Of a DNA stretch of 64,000 bases, positions 42,601 through 51,108 are shown piece by piece. Source of the DNA: Sminthopsis crassicaudata (Eukaryota); NCBI RefSeq assembly GCF_048593235.1, contig NC_133620.1, positions 440,787,261-440,851,260 on the forward strand. The letters run 5' to 3'. A model generated the notes under the pieces. That model did not search any database and was not told where the DNA came from. It was given only the letters and a program-made list of their open reading frames with translations. Position numbers and translations under genes: made by a program. Position 1 is the stretch's first letter, and each line of letters starts with the position of its first letter.

Positions 42601-45600
42601 ATTGAAGACTTCTCAGCAATCTAACAAACAGTCCAACTTCTCTTCCCAGCCTTCTTCCCAAGTTTTATTTCTGTTAAGAGTGTCGCCTTAGATCCCATAC
42701 TTAAAGTTGTAGTCTTAGCTTTCTCTCTAACTAGCCCATCATCACATTAGTTCAGAAGGTGTCTGACACTCACCTGCACTAATTATGATCATAATAGCTT
42801 CTAAATTAGTTTCCCAGACTCTCCAATTCCCCCTTCAAAAACCTTCTGGAATATGCCTTCTAAGGCAGAGATCATGCAGGTCATTCCCCTGCTCTAAAAA
42901 AATATTGTTTTAATGATCAAATCAAACTTCTTAGCCTGGCATTCAAGGTCCTCAGCCATCAGGTTCTCACTTACTTTTCACATTATGCCCCTTCAAGTAT
43001 TCTACATTCCAGTCACACTGGACTAAGAGTCCTTGAACTCAGCATGACGTGGCCAAGCCTTGTGCAGCCCCCCCTGGCTAGGATGTGCTTGGAATGCATG
43101 GCTCCTTCCTCATGTTCCCTCCCTGAGATTCTCTAACTCCCTCCATGTCTTGGCTCAGGGGGAGCTTGCTTCCCTGTGGGTTTTCCTTGGAGCCGACAGC
43201 TATCAGGACTTTTCCCCTCCTTCAACACTGGTAGGGGAGATTTCTCCTTCACCAGATTCCCCATCTAGCACATCCCTTCTTTTTGTCCTCTGTGCCCATG
43301 AGCGTAAGCTCTTTGAAAACAGGGATCTTTTGTTTTTATGACTTCCAGTTTACCTTCTATTTGCTTTCCTTTCTTTCCCACACCCATCCCCTATCAAAAA
43401 GCATGACTCAAAAGCATGAGGATGGATACAATTCACCTTACTCTCTCCCAGAATCCTTCCCCACGGTTCCCAGGACCCCCCCTCCCCTCCCTCCATCGCC
43501 CCTCCCCCACCTCACCAAGCCACCGTTATGGCCTGAGCTGTATGGGTTTCTCGCCCTTCTCTTCGGCTCAGGTTCCGGGCAGCTTTCACGACCTCTTCCT
43601 TGGTCCGGAAATCTCCAAGTGACCATTCATGTACGGCAGTCTCCCCATACTGAACCAACCCAACCTGGAGAGGGACAGTTTTGTTGATAGCTCTGTCTAT
43701 ACCTGCCACCCATCTCTGACTCCCACCCTCACCCCTTCTCACCTGTATCTGTTCGGGGTCAATGAACAGCCTCCCCACTAGTCTACGCAAGAAAGTCTGA
43801 ACCTCAGCCCAGGGATAGATGCTGTTAGAGCCATCCAGGACAATGACCACGTCCATGTAGGTGGGGCAGCCTAGATTTTGGAGGCACAGAATGGGGAAGC
43901 TAAAGCACATCAGGGCAAGAGTGTGGGAGCAGTGTCAACAGAAGGGGGCAGTGGCTGAATAAATTGGTACATGAAAGTAATGGGTTATTGTTCTATAAAA
44001 TACGATGAACAGGCTGATGTTAGAAAAGCCGGGAAAGATTTACACAAACTGATGCTGAGAGAAACAAGCAGAACCAGGAATACATTGTATACAATAACAG
44101 CAGGATTGTGAGATGATCAATTAGGAAAGGTTTGGTTCAGTGATCCAAGGAAATTCCAATAAACTTTGGATAGAAAACACCATCTGCACCCAGAGACAGA
44201 GCTATGGACACTGAATGTAAATCAATACCTGCTATGTTTACTATTTTCCTTTTTTCTTCTTCCTTTTTTTTCCCCCTTGGGGTTTTCCCCTTTTGTTCTG
44301 ATATTTCTCTCCCAACATGATTCACAACAAAATGTGCTTTTAAAAAATGAATGTACATGTATAACCAGAAAAAAAAGGAAAAACAATAAAATGAGTTGGG
44401 AAAACCGTGTGGGGGTAGTACAAAGAATATTGGTTGGGGAATAAGAGAATGTGGGCAAAAACCCTAGCTTTGTTTTTTATTAGCTATGTGATCATGAGTA
44501 AGTCTCTTTTCTTTATTTATAAAATGAAAATAATAATAACAACTATTCACAGTGTTATTATGAGGATCAAATAATATTTGGAAAATGCTTAGCACAGTGC
44601 CTGGCACAGAGCAGGGGCTTAAATAGGCAGATAGATGATAAATAAGTAAATGAGAGGTTTCCCTTCTCCGGTCCCCTCCCCACCACTCACGCTGTGCAGT
44701 AGGTGCTAAGCTCCCCCGGGGTCGGAATGAGGCATCCACTTGGGCACAGATCCCAGAACTGTACACAGAAGTACCACAAGCACGAGACCACAGTGGGGCA
44801 CAGGCCTGAGGAAAGAGAAATGGCAGGAACGTGTAAGGGCCCTTTAAATGGGCGGACACAGTGCATCGGGAGATTGAGGCCCAGAAGTAATTTCTGTGGA
44901 CATTAGGACTGCCCTTGGGCGGGATCCTGGCCATATTGAGATAGTTTTGTAATGGGTGACTCTCTCGCTGATTGGCTGTGTGTGTGACCTCACAGGCCCT
45001 ATGTAAGCCCACTGCAGGCAGCAACCGCCCTCTTTAATCTGGCATTCTTCACCCTGGCTTCCCAGCCTGGTGGCCAAGCCAAGATGGATAGCCAAAAGAG
45101 GTAAGGGTTTTGGTAGTGAACACATGGGTCTTCTGACCAGGTGTTCACCAGGGAACCAACAAGTCAGGGCATCAGTTAGGGCATTATGTGAGTAGGTATA
45201 ATAAAGGCTTTTAAGATTACACGTGGCTGTTCTTGAGTGCGCTACCGGTTATTAAGCTATAGATTCAAGAGATTGTGGCCAGAGACCTTAGAAGGCCTCA
45301 GAGGAGGCGAGCCGGGTAGAGCTCACACTGCAGAGGACAGTGGTCAAAGGTACTCTGGTGGGTCTAGGACAGACTAGTAATTGTAACTGCCAGGAGAGCA
45401 CGTACAAATGGCGCTCAACGTGGACGCATCAGGAATTATCAGGTTTTGAAAATATTTAATATTCAGAATTAAGATTCTGAAAGATCCGGTAGAAACGCCA
45501 CTTAAGAGGGAAGACAGAGAAGCAATATGGACCCAGGTAAATCTGGGATCAGGCTCAAGGACACAGCTGAACATAATGCTTATTATATAAAGAGGTTAAA

Positions 45601-48600
45601 GAGCCAGATGGAAGATCTTTTAACAAAGATCACCACTGAAGAACAGCAGGAAGCTTGTAATCAAGCTCCACAAAGGCTATCCCCACACCCAGTAAATAGA
45701 GCTAGGAGAGGGAGCAACCTAGAGCTAATGCGATTGTATGACAGTAGAGAGTATAAAATGCCACAGCAAGAGTTGCTGGAATTGCAGGTTAAACTACAGA
45801 TGGAGATAGAGAAAGAAGAAAAAGCTAGGTTACTACAGATAGAACAGGAAGAGTTCAAACCAGTGGCTGAAACTAAGGAAGGAAATAAAGGAACCACATG
45901 GATTAAAGTTGTAGAAATTCTTCTTAGCGTTTTGTTGGTTTACCTCCTGCATTGTTGTTTTAAGGAATTTATTGATTACTCTTCCATTGAGAAGTTTAGT
46001 TCTTTTTATGTGCAAAGCTCAGGTTTGATTTTAAATCAGCCTTTGGGGAATTTTCCAATTCTTCTTCCCTCTGCCTCACCTTCTTGGGCCAAGGGAGAAG
46101 GGGGAGGAGGAAAAGGAAGGGCGATAATACCATCAGTACTGCCCATTAATCCATTTAAAACTCCTGTGTCTTCATTTCAAAGGACAGGAGTAGGCTTTAT
46201 GCCCCAAGGCAAAAAGGAATTGTGGGGTATTGAGTATAATCAGAAAAGTTTTAAAAATACAGTTCAGTTAATTTCTAAGAAACCTTACAGGGACAAGACC
46301 TTGCAGTTAGAGAGAGTGGAGTTTTATACTTGTAAAACTGCTAGGATTGTCTTTGGAGAGTTGGAACTCCTCTTTTATTACCTCGTGGATTTTCCACTTC
46401 CACAGGTGAGCTTGATTTCCCAACCCCCTACGGGTACTTATAAAACAGTGTTTATGTCTAGAATGGGTTGGAAAATTGTTGTTTTAATCACTAGAATAAA
46501 TAGACAGTGTGTGATCTTTGACCCAGGAGGAAAAGTAATATCAGATTTATTGATTCACACTCCTGGAGTACAATTCGGTATCAGAAACTCAAACTTTGAT
46601 TTTTAGGCAAAAGAATTCAGGGATATAGCCAGAGTGTTCTAGTAAAGTCATTACTGCACAGACTATCCCCAAGATCTCTTCTAAACAAGAGAAGGGAATT
46701 TTGGGATATGTGATTGCTTACAATTTTTAAATTTTGATTTTACATTTTTAAACATTTTTGATTTTACATCTTCAAAGTATTTTGATTTTACATTTTTAAT
46801 CTATTTCGGTTTTACACTTTTAAATTATTTTGGTTTTACATTTTTAAATTCTTTGCATTTTACCTTAGCAATGCACTTCGGGCATACACAGAAAGTGCAG
46901 CTAAGTGACAGACTGACTTTTGTCTGACTTGTTAATCTTTTTGACAACAACTTTGTTTCCACTGTGATGTGGAAAGGCCTGGATGGCATTTGGAAAGGCC
47001 CAAGTTGGGCCCCAGGGACATTCCTTCCTAGGTGCAGATCCAGCAGCAGAGTTCATCCCCACCAGAGACATTTGTAACCTGGGGATCCAAGAGAAGGACC
47101 AGACAACAGTCCAGAGAGACCAGCCAGATGTCCGCAGCCCTTCAGACGCTGATGGCAGCGATGCCCCTCCTGACCGTGACACCAGAGACAGCAGACACGG
47201 TTCCAGTGTTGCAGCTGAGATGGACTGTTTTGGGTGATACACGATATAAAGACTGTAAATGGACAATGGGCCTGCTTGCTTCTCCCGTGGCCACTTACCA
47301 TATGGTGGCCTGGGGAGAGGCTTTGCCCTATGCTTTCTATTGAAGGACTATGCTTTTAAATTAGTGGGTGAAAAACCAACACACCCACCTGCCATTGTTA
47401 TTGAGACAATGTTACTGGACATGACTTTGCTTATGTGCACCTGTGAAACTAGAATTGTTCTAGAATTGTGAAAAGTGCAATAGAGAATTGTGATAAACTA
47501 GAATTGTTCTAGGATTGTGAAAAAGTGCAATTGAGAATTGTGATAAACTAGAATTGTTCTAGGATTGTGACAAGTGCAATTGAGAATTGTGATAAGCTAG
47601 AATTGTTCTAGAATTGTGACAAGTGCAATTGAGAATTGTGATAAGCTAGAATTGTTCTAGGAGTGTGAAAAGTGCAACAGAAAATTGTAAGAAACTAGAA
47701 TTGGTCTAGAACTGTGATAAATGTAACTAGAATTGTGACAACCTACCTACTGATATTTGTTAACTAGAATTGTGATGTTTTACCTTGTTGACTTCCCACC
47801 TCAGTGTTGACATCCTACCTCATTGGCATCCAACCTCTTTGGCTTATTATCTCGAGTATGACTTTGATGAATGGGTTGAACACTTGGGCCACTGTTGAGC
47901 CTGGTTCTCATTGTCATACTTCTGTTTACTGATTTGCTGCTTTGTACCTCCTTGGGCATAACACTGTCATCTCATGGATCAAGTGAACTATAGCTGATGG
48001 TAAAAGTTTAGCTTGGTGAGATGTGCGGTTCCCGCAAAACAAGAGAAAGGGAATTGTAAGGGCCCTTTAAATGGGCGGACACAGTGCATCGGGAGATTGA
48101 GGCCCAGAAGTAATTTCTGTGGACATTAGGACTGCCCTTGGGCGGGATCCTGGCCATATTGAGATAGTTTTGTAATGGGTGACTCTCTCGCTGATTGGCT
48201 GTGTGTGTGACCTCACAGGCCCTATGTAAGCCCACTGCAGGCAGCAACCGCCCTCTTTAATCTGGCATTCTTCACCCTGGCTTCCCAGCCTGGTGGCCAA
48301 GCCAAGATGGATAGCCAAAAGAGGTAAGGGTTTTGGTAGTGAACACATGGGTCTTCTGACCAGGTGTTCACCAGGGAACCAACAAGTCAGGGCATCAGTT
48401 AGGGCATTATGTGAGTAGGTATAATAAAGGCTTTTAAGATTACACGTGGCTGTTCTTGAGTGCGCTACCGGTTATTAAGCTATAGATTCAAGAGATTGTG
48501 GCCAGAGACCTTAGAAGGCCTCAGAGGAGGCGAGCCGGGTAGAGCTCACACTGCAGAGGACAGTGGTCAAAGGTACTCTGGTGGGTCTAGGACAGACTAG

Positions 48601-51108
48601 TAATTGTAACTGCCAGGAGAGCACGTACAGGAACGTCATTCCCAGATCCCAGGGCCGGATCTCATTCCCCCTTCTCGAGCTGTTTCCCACTCCCTACCTC
48701 CCCCATAGGGTCTAAACACCATCCATTTGGTCCTTCCCCACTCTCCGTGCCATTAACTTTCTGCACTGCTCCCTCAGTGGACTCCTAGAATGGATTCCCC
48801 ATCGTTAACTTCCACAATGCCCCTCATTCCCACCTCACCATAAAGCCCCCATCCACATCAGTTTTCAGCAGTGACATCCCAAGATGCATGTTCACAGCTG
48901 GACTCGAAGAGTTTCCCAGTGGATAGTCACCTGGAAGTGACAGGGAAGTTGGTGAACACAGGTTTGGGGTCGGGAGTGGAGAGGGAAGGAATATTTAGGA
49001 AGTCATGGGAAGCAATCAAATGTTATTGGGAAGCGGGGAGTTTGAGGAATAAGAGGTCAGGGTCAAAGAGTGGAGAAGAAGGCTGAAAGGGAGTGGCCTC
49101 TGCTTACCCAGGTGGCCCTTGGCACAGGAGGCATTAGGCCGCTCCTCCACAGGACAGAGATACACATCTCCTCTCCTATCTCCGGAAGGTCCATCCCAAG
49201 GGGCACCCACCAACATCCTGTGAGACCAAGGTTGTGCATGAGCATGGCTTCCCGGAGCATAACCCTAAAGACAAGCTGGTCCCAAAGCCAGAACTTCAGT
49301 TTGTGATCACCCCAGTTTATTCTCCAAGATCCCAACTGTCTCATTCCTTCTGAAAGTAACTACATGGCGATTACTCTCCTATTATCTATGGCTCGTGGGG
49401 GATAAATAATATTGGCCCAACCTAAAGTCTATCCTTCTGTTTCCCTACAGGCTTCTCCTTAACCAGCCCCACCCCAGCGCCAGCCCTTTCTCCTTTCTTC
49501 CTTCTCATTCGGGTTCCCTTTGACCATCATGATACCCCGAGTTGTCCCAGGCTTCCCTCACCATCCACGTCCTCCCCCCACGTGCTGCAAGACACTGTAT
49601 CCGAACTCGGCCTCCGGTGGCCCATGAAACAGGCGAGGATGACTATCATCCAAGTTGAAGGAGAGGCAGAAACCTGGGGGAAGGAGGGATGGAGGGAGAG
49701 AAGATCAGTCACGAGGTCAAGGGCTTAGGGGAAGCCACAGGAGGGCTTGGCTAAGTGAAGAGACCTCTGGCCAGGACATGCTGGCCCGAGCCGCTGGCCC
49801 TCTCCTTGTCTTGTCTCTAGCAGCATTTCCATCTGCGCCTGCTGGCCCAAGGGTGTCTTCTTCTACCTTGTCTCCATCCAGATGTCCTGTTCATCCTGTC
49901 TGTGGCTCTTAGCCACAATGACATGCACAGCTGTGAATTCATTCCCGCCCCCGAAATCTCTTTCACAGAATCAATCTAAAGGGTCGGGTTACTCAGCCCC
50001 CCTTTTCCTCCCTGCCCTCACCCAACCTGGGAGGCTCAAACAAAAGTAGGGGAATGGCAGCTTTCTGTAACATCAGAAAAATTCCCCAGTCCCTGTGGGG
50101 TCCAGGGGTTAGACAGGAGCCTGAAAAGGACAGGACACTGAAAGCTGTCTCTTACAAGTACCCCCTGTTTCTCCATCTCCCCATGTCAGTGTGTCTCATG
50201 CAGGCACACACAGATTCCTGTGTCTTCGGCCTCAGCCCCGGAAACCTCAGGATCAATTACCGGGGTGGGGCAGCCTGCCCACACACAAACTTCTCTCTGC
50301 CCCCACCACAGAGGTCCCAAAGCTTCACCACCCTTCTGCCTTCCCAGCACAGCGACATCCCACTCCCTAACTAGGCCCCTGTTCACTTCCTGAATAATTT
50401 AGTCCCCTCCCAGAGACCCCACATCATGTCCTAGCTGGTCCTCTCCTTCCTAGCCCAAGCTCTCTCCAGACTCAGAACGGGTATTTTGGGAAACATAGAT
50501 TATAGGGGAAAGCTAAGATCCCCTTAAACATGGCCAAACCACCCCCGCCTTTTAGGGTTCCCTCCCTACTTCCCAGACCATCCCTTCCCCCTCCTCCCTT
50601 CCTAACAAATGCCTCTCCAGAACAAAGGAGTGTCTCATATGTCTTCAGACCCCCCTGGACACTAGGAAGTCAATAGGTGGGGTGGGACTGCATGTGGTCA
50701 TTGGTCAAATATTCTTAGGATGCCAGCCACTCTGGCCGAGGGGGACCCTGAAGAAAAGGGGCCATGTGGAGCATTCTGGGTGCCACTTTCCAGAAGTCTA
50801 GGCACCAATTCCAGGTAACTAAGCAAAAGCTTCCACCAGCACCACAGGAAAATTCTCCTACTATCATCCTGGGAGAGGAGGGAATAATCTGTAATATGGA
50901 TTCAAAGTCACACTTTTCAGAGCCCTGTCCTTAGGGCTCCCAGCAGCAGGGCGTCTCCTCCCCCCACAAAGGACATTCTTACCCCTAAGGTCCCAGCCCC
51001 CAGACATCCCACACACCTGCCTCCCCACCAAGCCCCAAATGGTTAACCTCCCTCACCTGCCAGGAGCAACACGGGGAGAGGGAGGAGAGGGCTGAGGGAG
51101 AGCTCCAT
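27675..51108 (-). CDS. ITGA10: Integrin alpha-10 (collagen-binding I-domain integrin), 30 exons, 1165 aa, intact
   Basis: Exons (minus): 51108-51057, 49673-49562, 49217-49108, 48930-48839, 44805-44691, 43870-43743, 43664-43516, 39465-39315, 39076-38911, 38584-38511, 38240-38096, 37324-37176, 36988-36845, 36727-36527, 36098-35968, 35735-35569, 35492-35350, 35193-35080, 34825-34740, 34016-33875, 33614-33522, 32683-32607, 32473-32384, 31982-31898, 31717-31604, 31123-31043, 30901-30788, 28603-28508, 28235-28122, 27737-27675. Total 3498 nt, all GT-AG. Signal peptide, FNLD start, MIDAS DGSNS, FG-GAP repeats, TM and GFFARK tail. Confidence 0.98.
33280..33435. other. Assembly gap (156 N) inside a MIR-like SINE in ITGA10 intron 21
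   Basis: Run of N flanked by SINE-like sequence. Confidence 0.99.
37515..37864 (+). mobile_element. WSINE1-type SINE split by a hAT MITE
   Basis: Head ggagcagctaggtggtgtagt at 37515 continues after the MITE as gatcagccctgaagtcaggaggacctgaattc...CORE...A-tail. Confidence 0.8.
37544..37750 (-). mobile_element. 207-bp hAT/Charlie MITE resembling OC1 (OposCharlie1) non-autonomous elements
   Basis: 16-bp TIRs CAGGGGTTCTCAAACT / CAGTGGTCCTCAAACT; perfect 8-bp TSD GTCTAGTG (37536-37543, 37751-37758). Minus-strand start cagtggtcctcaaactttttaaatagggggccaattcactgtccctcagac matches the recalled OC1 MITE left end. Confidence 0.85.
39831..39993 (+). mobile_element. Young WSINE1-type SINE with long poly-A and TSD
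   Basis: Intact head and CORE, pure A-tail of about 23 nt, 13-bp TSD AAGTGCTGAACAA (39818-39830, 39994-40006). Confidence 0.9.
41110..41245 (-). mobile_element. WSINE1-type SINE
   Basis: Reverse complement of head (...ccacctagctgcccc) and CORE, with (TAT)n tail upstream. Confidence 0.85.
43960..44370 (+). mobile_element. Degenerate L1 3' fragment
   Basis: gttattgttctataaaatacgatgaacagg...aactgatgctgag...gcagaaccagga homologous to 24340-24440. Confidence 0.75.
44832..45406 (+). repeat. 5' LTR (575 bp)
   Basis: TGTAAG...CGTACA; GC box (GGGCGG near 44917), inverted CCAAT 44971-44975, TATA-like TATGTAA near 45000, AATAAA 45200-45205. Confidence 0.96.
45409..45426 (+). promoter_or_regulatory. 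Primer binding site, tRNA-Lys(CUU)-like
   Basis: TGGCGCTCAACGTGGACG, 2 nt after the LTR; matches the Lys1,2 PBS TGGCGCCCAACGTGGGGC at 14 of the first 15 nt. Confidence 0.85.
45527..46606 (+). CDS. Unknown 359-aa predicted single-pass membrane protein carried by the LTR element in the gag position
   Basis: Uninterrupted ATG-to-TAG ORF of 1080 nt; strong Kozak (aatATGG); 100 nt after the PBS. Heptad-like segments at about aa 18-42 and 80-110; hydrophobic stretch aa 125-145 ending in CC. No recognisable retroviral motif. Confidence 0.75.
   Translation: MDPGKSGIRLKDTAEHNAYYIKRLKSQMEDLLTKITTEEQQEACNQAPQRLSPHPVNRARRGSNLELMRLYDSREYKMPQQELLELQVKLQMEIEKEEKARLLQIEQEEFKPVAETKEGNKGTTWIKVVEILLSVLLVYLLHCCFKEFIDYSSIEKFSSFYVQSSGLILNQPLGNFPILLPSASPSWAKGEGGGGKGRAIIPSVLPINPFKTPVSSFQRTGVGFMPQGKKELWGIEYNQKSFKNTVQLISKKPYRDKTLQLERVEFYTCKTARIVFGELELLFYYLVDFPLPQVSLISQPPTGTYKTVFMSRMGWKIVVLITRINRQCVIFDPGGKVISDLLIHTPGVQFGIRNSNFDF
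46720..46863. repeat. 24-bp T-rich tandem array, about 6 copies
   Basis: G(A/G)TTTTACA anchors at 46736, 46760, 46784, 46808, 46832, 46856 (exact 24-bp period). Confidence 0.9.
46964..47075 (+). pseudogene. Frameshifted remnant of a betaretrovirus-like integrase C-terminal domain
   Basis: VMWKGLDGIWKGP (46964-47002), then W-A-P-G and, in the next frame, HSFLGADPAAEFIPTRDI; resembles recalled MPMV VKWKDPLDNTWHGP...WGRG...DAARWLPER and HERV-K WIPTRHL. Confidence 0.6.
47449..47775. repeat. 49-bp tandem array (5 full units plus 3 degenerate) with internal hairpin
   Basis: Units start at 47449, 47498, 47548, 47597, 47646, 47695, 47727, 47764; each full unit opens with CTAGAA-TTG-TTCTAG. Confidence 0.92.
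48036..48053 (+). promoter_or_regulatory. Polypurine tract
   Basis: AAAACAAGAGAAAGGGAA immediately before the 3' LTR. Confidence 0.85.
48055..48629 (+). repeat. 3' LTR (575 bp)
   Basis: Same length as the 5' LTR; no difference found by eye; identical 93-aa ORF translations in both copies. Confidence 0.96.

Follow-up and report, generated by a model that had tools for sequence, protein, structure and literature searches.

What is the origin of a protein that resembles nothing beyond its own family, and why is its reading frame kept open? The question is raised by a 359-residue open reading frame (ORF) at 45527-46606 on the plus strand of the 64,000-nt stretch of Sminthopsis crassicaudata DNA analysed here (the window; contig NC_133620.1, positions 440,787,261 to 440,851,260). 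The ORF, whose product is called P0001, is real, and it is the single gene of a 3,798-nt non-autonomous long terminal repeat (LTR) element at 44832-48629. An initial annotation had treated it as foreign cargo; our comparisons instead identify it as a remnant of the element's own gag-pro lineage, with a firmly indicated descent of residues 257-351 from a dead dUTPase domain in the Pro protein of an abundant env-less family, exemplified by locus L135, that we regard as the element's helper. The frame is under selection while the residues change near-neutrally (dN/dS, the ratio of nonsynonymous to synonymous change, is about 1). We lean towards the explanation that the ORF is kept since its translation in cis favours copying of the element's own RNA.

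Probable descent of the ORF from a gag-pro region

Database searches placed P0001 only within its own family. A search of 5.8 billion proteins gave one match, an own-family member, and HMMER against 1.84 billion representatives found only the one own-family member; the PDB sequence search returned none for P0001, and the sole Pfam match, a sub-threshold one to Herpes_UL73 on the hydrophobic helix, indicates no origin. All the database relatives are RefSeq 'uncharacterized proteins' of S. crassicaudata itself, and at least eight loci of the element family carry RefSeq gene models, a warning that several of the dunnart proteins so labelled come from copies of a single mobile element. A clear host-gene match, which would have meant gene capture, was not found, nor was any database relative outside the family. 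Kinesin-like matches in the ESM Atlas, at 0.80 or less, were at chance level and give no origin; a LINE-1 ORF2 origin for residues 19-55 was rejected, with 225 of 300 shuffles scoring as high at the DNA level, as was an antisense-gag origin of the ORF.

The relationship emerged from other endogenous retroviruses (ERVs) of the same genome. Among 20 loci chosen from 150 integrase-tail matches, eight match the last 350 nt of the ORF at 59-62% nucleotide identity. Residues 257-351 are in frame with the start of Pro, with 41% identity to L135 and 33-41% in nine loci (tblastn, E 5e-8 to 4e-13 in a 13-locus database), and hhalign relates the P0001 domain to the helper Pro domain with a probability of 97.5 and E 6.6e-12. 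The helper domain directly precedes the protease. Its match to the Pfam dUTPase model is sub-threshold (12.8 bits against a cut-off of 22, E 0.1), its match to an alignment of 10 Pfam-positive ERV dUTPases is stronger (probability 92.5, E 4.8e-7), and its best PDB match, a weak one (E 0.4-0.9), is the dUTPase of feline immunodeficiency virus (FIV); within the length range searched, no database relative of it reaches E 0.001. P0001 compared directly with the ERV dUTPase alignment gives no match. The initial annotation's loose dUTPase echo is thus true ancestry at two removes, from P0001 to the helper domain and from there to the ERV dUTPases, and the homology of a dUTPase-derived pseudoenzyme is established transitively, the direct comparison being negative.

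Active trimeric dUTPases have five motifs, including the aspartate of motif 3 and a Gly-rich motif 5. Neither P0001 nor its domain matches the Pfam dUTPase family (PF00692), and the five catalytic motifs are not retained in the P0001 alignment: on the motif numbering that we assume, motif 3 is deleted, its region being shorter by about five residues, and motifs 1, 2, 4 and 5 are eroded. The catalytic motifs were already lost in the helper family. The helper domain (L135:5834-6709 and relatives) is nevertheless under purifying selection between subfamilies, which suggests a non-enzymatic role in Gag-Pro. Among 32 loci picked mostly by a Pfam dUTPase match, none except copies of the element itself is related to the ORF. 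A cluster of about 17 weak dUTPase matches lies at about 28.0-29.3 Mb of C7; two of its members, L179 and L180, were considered and set aside as decayed ERV-L-like elements unrelated to P0001.

Where do the first 248 codons come from? They align along their whole length with the opening 760 nt of gag in the helper family, and for four of seven helper gag starts none of 200 shuffles reaches the score (z 3.6-5.4); none of seven unrelated betaretroviral gags beats the shuffles (z at most 1.8). At the protein level the Gag frame of L135 is the best of three frames, its score being equalled or exceeded by two of 300 shuffles; for L145 one frame outscores every one of the 300, and four other loci are not significant. 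This first part of the ORF has no Gly at position 2, no capsid and no zinc knuckle. On these alignments codons 1-248 would probably correspond to matrix and spacer, ending near the start of capsid. The ORF as a whole thus appears to be a drifted matrix-spacer-dUTPase fusion without capsid and nucleocapsid, firmly so for the pro part and probably for the gag part. The orphan would thereby be solved: a protein matching only its own family among 1.84 billion representatives is an eroded gag-pro fusion.

Selection keeps the frame and leaves the residues free

The genome holds 6,356 candidate places for the element; the 113 that were scored, the best of these and hence biased to intact copies, share 94-100% identity along their full length, with no inner stop in 102 of them. 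A sample chosen regardless of the ORF consisted of 34 loci fetched from the 40 best LTR matches: 28 two-LTR elements, four solo LTRs, one partial element and one chimera. The 28 elements encode proteins of 356-360 residues (11) or 339-341 residues (15), with one stopping at 326 and one lacking its 5' part. The short form is due to one common 4-nt deletion near codon 336. LTR pairs differ at 0-14 of 575 nt, and pairs with zero mismatches occur in both forms (three long, five short). Adding 30 of 66 primer-site matches gave 39 usable sequences, with the short form, which lacks the C-terminal NFDF tail, in 21. These counts omit L015 (5'-deleted), L036 (same ORF and flanks as L029), L161 (the same locus as L016) and the partial L158 and L171. 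Recombination within the family is heavy, 753 of 861 site pairs failing the four-gamete test.

Insertions and deletions show that the frame is kept. In the LTR-picked copies, a length divisible by three is seen in eight of nine distinct ORF indels, as opposed to 9 of 38 indels in the LTR, leader and 3' non-coding sequence (p 5.5e-4); in all picked copies the count is 11 of 14, including the frameshifts of L015 and L167, against 7 of 32 merged non-coding indels (p 6e-4). With either control, merged (7/32) or raw (9/38), p is 6e-4 to 8e-4, and it stays below 0.002 in every variant. Stops tell the same story: none is common to two copies, as against 54 common amino-acid changes (P about 0.03), and the divergence from the helper, 0.6 substitutions per site, should have produced about 3.4 stops per 100 codons, the probability of none being 0.03. 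The older copies L112 and L126 do carry stops.

The residues behave differently. Pairwise pN/pS is 0.70, 0.90 and 1.00 for kappa of 1, 3 and 5, and dN/dS at shared sites among the 39 copies is about 0.95 (95% range 0.57-1.66). Against the helper domain dS and dN are both about 0.6, giving a ratio of about 0.95 (bootstrap 0.56-1.57), or 0.96-1.19 over five loci, as compared with about 0.35-0.37 (0.18-0.75) for two helper subfamilies against L135. Identity to the helper is equal at the three codon positions (0.57, 0.62, 0.57), and common changes are no more conservative than random (P 0.50). By region, dN/dS is above 1 in residues 121-150 and 251-335 and below 1 in 1-120, with no regional value significantly different from 1. 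Selection on translation in cis would account for a frame that stays open while its residues vary freely. In the dUTPase-derived part and the helix, residues are conserved no more than neutrality predicts, an argument against a sequence-specific protein of accessory, immune-modulating or restriction type.

Organization of the element

The element has paired TG...CA LTRs within a 6-nt target-site duplication, similar duplications being present in most of the 28 two-LTR sister elements, together with a tRNA-Lys primer site and a polypurine tract, and it holds no protease, reverse transcriptase or integrase frame. It is therefore a class II (betaretrovirus-like) non-autonomous element, with the following features.

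44826..44831, no strand: left copy of the target-site duplication, 6 nt, GGAACG
44832..45406, plus: 5' LTR, 575 nt, TG...CA ends, 0 mismatches against the 3' LTR
45409..45426, plus: primer-binding site, tRNA-Lys(CUU), two mismatches against the perfect form in sister copies
45527..46606, plus: 359-residue ORF (P0001), apparently a drifted Gag-Pro deletion fusion
45527..46270, plus: codons 1-248, probably from the 5' part of gag, with weak DNA and protein similarity to helper-family gag
45902..45958, plus: hydrophobic helix, residues 126-144, with C143-C144; KD19 hydropathy of 2.0-2.33 in 40 of 40 copies
46064..46171, plus: Gly/Pro-rich residues 180-215, like the Gly/Pro spacer of helper-family Gag
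46277..46627, plus: homology to the N-terminal, degenerate-dUTPase part of helper-family pro, residues 257-351 in frame
46533..46536, plus: site of the common 4-nt deletion in other copies, where the protein has 337-341 residues and no NFDF tail
46707..46874, plus: 24-nt T-rich tandem array, non-coding
47424..47718, plus: 49-nt tandem array, non-coding, of varying length among copies
48036..48052, plus: polypurine tract, 15 of 16 nt the same as the purine tract of helper-family locus L135
48055..48629, plus: 3' LTR, with AATAAA at 48423
48630..48635, no strand: right copy of the target-site duplication

An integrase remnant suspected by eye near 46960-47100 has no Pfam match and no support. 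A 13-codon upstream ORF opens at the ATG at 45408, at the primer-binding site. By eye, a splice-donor-like site lies at 45100-45106 in the LTR and an acceptor-like site at 45455-45467 before the ORF; a joint between the two was not found in contigs of four sequencing runs. Four runs cover the element, three of them carrying the 4-nt deletion, and this coverage is no evidence of transcription, because the runs are only guessed to be RNA and a silent-stretch control is absent.

Probable helper family and chimeric insertions

Which element supplies the missing proteins? An autonomous element with the same LTR was not found among the 34 LTR-picked, 20 older-LTR-picked and 30 primer-site-picked loci. 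The L135 family has gag, pro and pol frames in about 6.9 kb, with an LTR of about 303 nt and no env frame of 200 residues or more, and it is abundant and young: of 12,099 candidate places, the 150 that were scored are 99-100% identical. In organization and abundance, with very many near-identical copies, it fits the description of MEBrv 3, the env-less element that Harding et al. 2024 (PMC11334065) describe as dominant among dasyurid ERVs; its published representative differs in having an LTR of 469 nt. The words dUTPase, non-autonomous and accessory do not occur in the main text of that report.

The link between the two families is provided by chimeras. Among the 30 primer-site-picked loci, 13 are ordinary elements and four extend into the tRNA complement; two consist of two element-family LTRs head to head, ten of an element LTR head to head with a helper LTR through a palindromic primer site, and one of an element LTR joined to helper gag on the same strand, shares that are not genome-wide rates, as the search pattern required a perfect primer site. 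The head-to-head structures, each LTR-primer site-LTR, are as follows.

Element and helper: L024, L155, L156, L163, L164, L169, L170, L173, L174, L176, L177
Both of the element family: L152, L175

Of the 11 element-helper chimeras examined, three are flanked by an exact 6-nt duplication and a fourth by one that agrees at 5 of 6 nt; the remaining ones are parts of longer or interrupted structures. On the simplest reading, plus-strand strong-stop DNAs of both families would have met in one particle, annealed and integrated as a unit. Since the chimeras join the LTRs of both families at the primer site, they point to the L135 family as the helper, and the head-to-head and same-strand chimeras together are indirect evidence of mobilisation by an autonomous env-less relative. 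LTR chimeras can in this way name a helper without any assay; if the reading is true, they document in the genome which elements have shared a particle.

In the four loci that extend beyond the primer site (L153, L157, L158 and L168), the sequence just after the LTR continues as tRNA-Lys(CTT) complement, in L168 as the whole of it, and reverse transcription appears to have read through the tRNA primer.

Features and fold of the protein

Much of the architecture initially described for P0001 holds. There is no signal peptide by hydropathy, no window exceeding a KD19 of 1.2 before residue 121, and one strong hydrophobic stretch, peaking at 2.15 at 126-144, ends in C143-C144. This peak is reached by 3.6% of 2000 shuffled proteins, and the stretch is a marginal membrane helix because it contains E130 and H142; its hydropathy is kept in all 40 copies despite more variation here than in any other part. 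The flanking charges slightly favour an N-in topology, in which the di-Cys and the tail would face the lumen. The Gly/Pro linker at 180-215 is borne out (12 of 36 residues, against 46 of 359 overall), as is the lack of an N-glycosylation sequon, which is uninformative because only about 0.9 is expected in the last 215 residues. The heptad-like helices fared unevenly: 18-42 stands (P=0.012 against shuffles), 80-110 does not (P=1.0), and AlphaFold draws both as helices with low confidence. A well-defined fold, proposed as a check, did not materialize. AlphaFold gave a mean pLDDT of 34 for the whole protein and 35 for residues 212-359, and Foldseek with the latter model found no match at E 0.001 or better.

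The adenovirus protein E4-ORF1 has a PDZ-binding tail. The NFDF C-terminus of P0001, read earlier as a possible PDZ ligand, is present and unremarkable: a hydrophobic-X-hydrophobic end is expected by chance in 13% at this composition, and a conserved, required C-terminal PDZ motif of the E4-ORF1 kind is not seen, the tail being absent in 21 of 39 copies. As the short form shows, neither the tail nor the strand that aligns with dUTPase motif 4 is needed.

A model for translation in cis

Why is the frame kept when its residues are free? A product acting in trans gives the copy that encodes it no advantage, and its frame should therefore decay in a large recombining family; with many recombining source copies, free-riders should lose a trans-working protein. 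We propose the following model. The ancestor would have lost capsid, nucleocapsid, protease and pol by deletion, creating an in-frame Gag-Pro fusion, and the element would take Gag and Pol from the helper in particles common to both. RNA translated to about codon 335 would be packaged or would survive better than RNA with an early stop, and selection would then act copy by copy for an open frame, few residues mattering. The nascent chain would probably, via the retained hydrophobic helix, tether the RNA that encodes it close to the assembling Gag of the helper, in the way proposed for the mouse intracisternal A-particle (IAP) element 1-Delta-1; alternatively, still in cis, the passage of ribosomes might merely stabilise the RNA, and the data fit both equally.

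The closest known system is indeed IAP 1-Delta-1, whose Gag-Pol fusion is described as acting in cis (PMC6466679, PMC7411935). Both belong to env-less, IAP-like betaretroviral lineages; an internal deletion leaving one in-frame fusion ORF, as in 1-Delta-1, is probable for our element, and both would require Gag and Pol in trans. They differ in that the fusion here is Gag-Pro(dUTPase) without capsid and nucleocapsid, in a drift of about 0.6 substitutions per site that leaves it unrecognised by database searches, in the hydrophobic helix, in an LTR type of its own, and in that cis action is here deduced from evolution. On this comparison we would count the element as a variant among those of 1-Delta-1 type and would not regard its ORF as a new accessory gene. 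In ETn/MusD, recKoRV/KoRV-A and bovine ERVK D/C, a defective element is mobilised by an intact relative, with recombination between them, and its central segment is described as swapped for old retroelement DNA (PMC10924933); the centre of the present element is, unlike these, a deletion fusion with a selected frame. In the literature covered, thin for subscription journals and exclusive of repeat databases, we found no description of the element, of an ERV ORF selected for its frame only, or of head-to-head chimeras.

We speculate further, with less than even confidence, that this is a 'decoy ORF': a gag-pro remnant kept merely translatable that drifted into an unrecognisable orphan with a membrane-type helix, and that still drives the proliferation of an element parasitising the most active retrotransposon of the dunnart. 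If true, the family would show, live and in many copies, how retroviral genes give rise to a new protein when selection acts on the frame only. A selected frame with free residues offers a direct route to why non-autonomous retroelements keep ORFs, a question that so far rests mainly on IAP 1-Delta-1, and the two natural tail forms and many recombining copies make that question testable from population and ribosome-profiling data.

Several observations weigh against this account of origin and maintenance. On the gag side, the other three of the seven helper gag loci reach only z 1.6-2.8, hhalign finds no match of codons 1-248 to helper gag, and the hydrophobic helix is placed against the last matrix helix in the protein alignment but against a hydrophilic spacer in the DNA alignment. 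The element and helper LTRs align only at their ends. The first 120 codons have a pN/pS of 0.46-0.71 (shared sites not significantly below 1, p 0.52); the ranges of dN/dS, which reach down to about 0.56, leave room for moderate constraint or for a mixture of purifying and positive selection; and part of the 0.6 divergence may predate the element, the domain then having been in the pro gene of an unsampled lineage. The model also assumes that the ORF is transcribed and translated; at least four ATGs lie 5' of it, so the protein could come from a spliced, unpackaged RNA, and, in contrast to 1-Delta-1, the element retains no capsid domain that could join helper Gag in assembly.

Could the protein sequence itself matter? 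One might picture an adaptor that acts in cis and binds helper Gag or Gag-Pro, for example via the dUTPase-derived domain, in an arms race in which a dN/dS near 1 is the average of conserved and positively selected sites. The open frame across the whole dUTPase-derived part, the 41% identity to a helper domain that is itself under purifying selection, the regional spread of dN/dS (above 1 in 121-150 and 251-335, below 1 in 1-120) and the constant hydrophobicity of the helix in 40 of 40 copies would all suit such an adaptor. We nonetheless consider it unlikely, given that identity to the helper is equal across codon positions, that residue changes are not conservative, that no regional dN/dS is significantly off 1 and that the common short form removes the strand aligned with motif 4. 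The initial annotation had suggested, as speculation, an accessory, immune-modulating or restriction-type role, and in its trans-acting form P0001 would be a palmitoylated membrane pseudo-dUTPase whose PDZ ligand alters host signalling or immunity. E4-ORF1, described as dUTPase-derived with catalysis lost (PMC4006922), is the precedent; the P0001 domain shares this descent and loss of catalytic motifs, and the helix and di-Cys are present. Where E4-ORF1 has a conserved signalling function, however, the tail here is dispensable, both tail forms occurring in recent insertions, and the residues drift near-neutrally. A trans product would, moreover, not be selected copy by copy in a recombining family, and with the weak N-in bias the tail and the cysteines would face the lumen. 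On these grounds we consider a PDZ-binding immune modulator improbable.

That the host keeps the ORF as a restriction factor, a defective Gag-like product poisoning assembly of the very active helper family, strikes us as the hardest to credit. The probable gag origin, the abundance and youth of the helper (99-100% identity among the 150 places scored) and the RefSeq models at eight or more loci would be in keeping with it; host selection, by contrast, leads one to expect few fixed loci with conserved residues, as opposed to more than 100 dispersed, recombining, still-inserting copies. Finally, the ORF might be a neutral relic that looks intact only through the youth of its copies, as LTR pairs differing by no more than 14 of 575 nt, a dN/dS of about 1 and the stops in L112 and L126 would allow. 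The excess of in-frame indels largely refutes this, and the lack of common stops and a frame still open after the domain has diverged from its helper counterpart by about 0.6 substitutions per site leave it little room. Translation in cis remains the explanation that we prefer.

Additional observations

Six older solo LTRs (L111, L114, L120, L122, L124 and L125) carry 30-40 additional nt at the 5' end; in the present element the matching sequence lies ahead of the purine tract, and the LTR boundary therefore shifted during the history of the family. Tandem element copies with common LTRs are found at L040 and on C4 at 419107667 and 419111196. At L133:2582-5796 and L138:2485-4592, short two-LTR elements have open pol fragments of 720 and 270 residues, respectively, directly after a Lys primer site, and may represent additional non-autonomous families with a selected frame. 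An exon of a rhodopsin-family G-protein-coupled receptor lies about 9 kb downstream of the element, in a GC-rich island of the window (57432-58283, plus strand).

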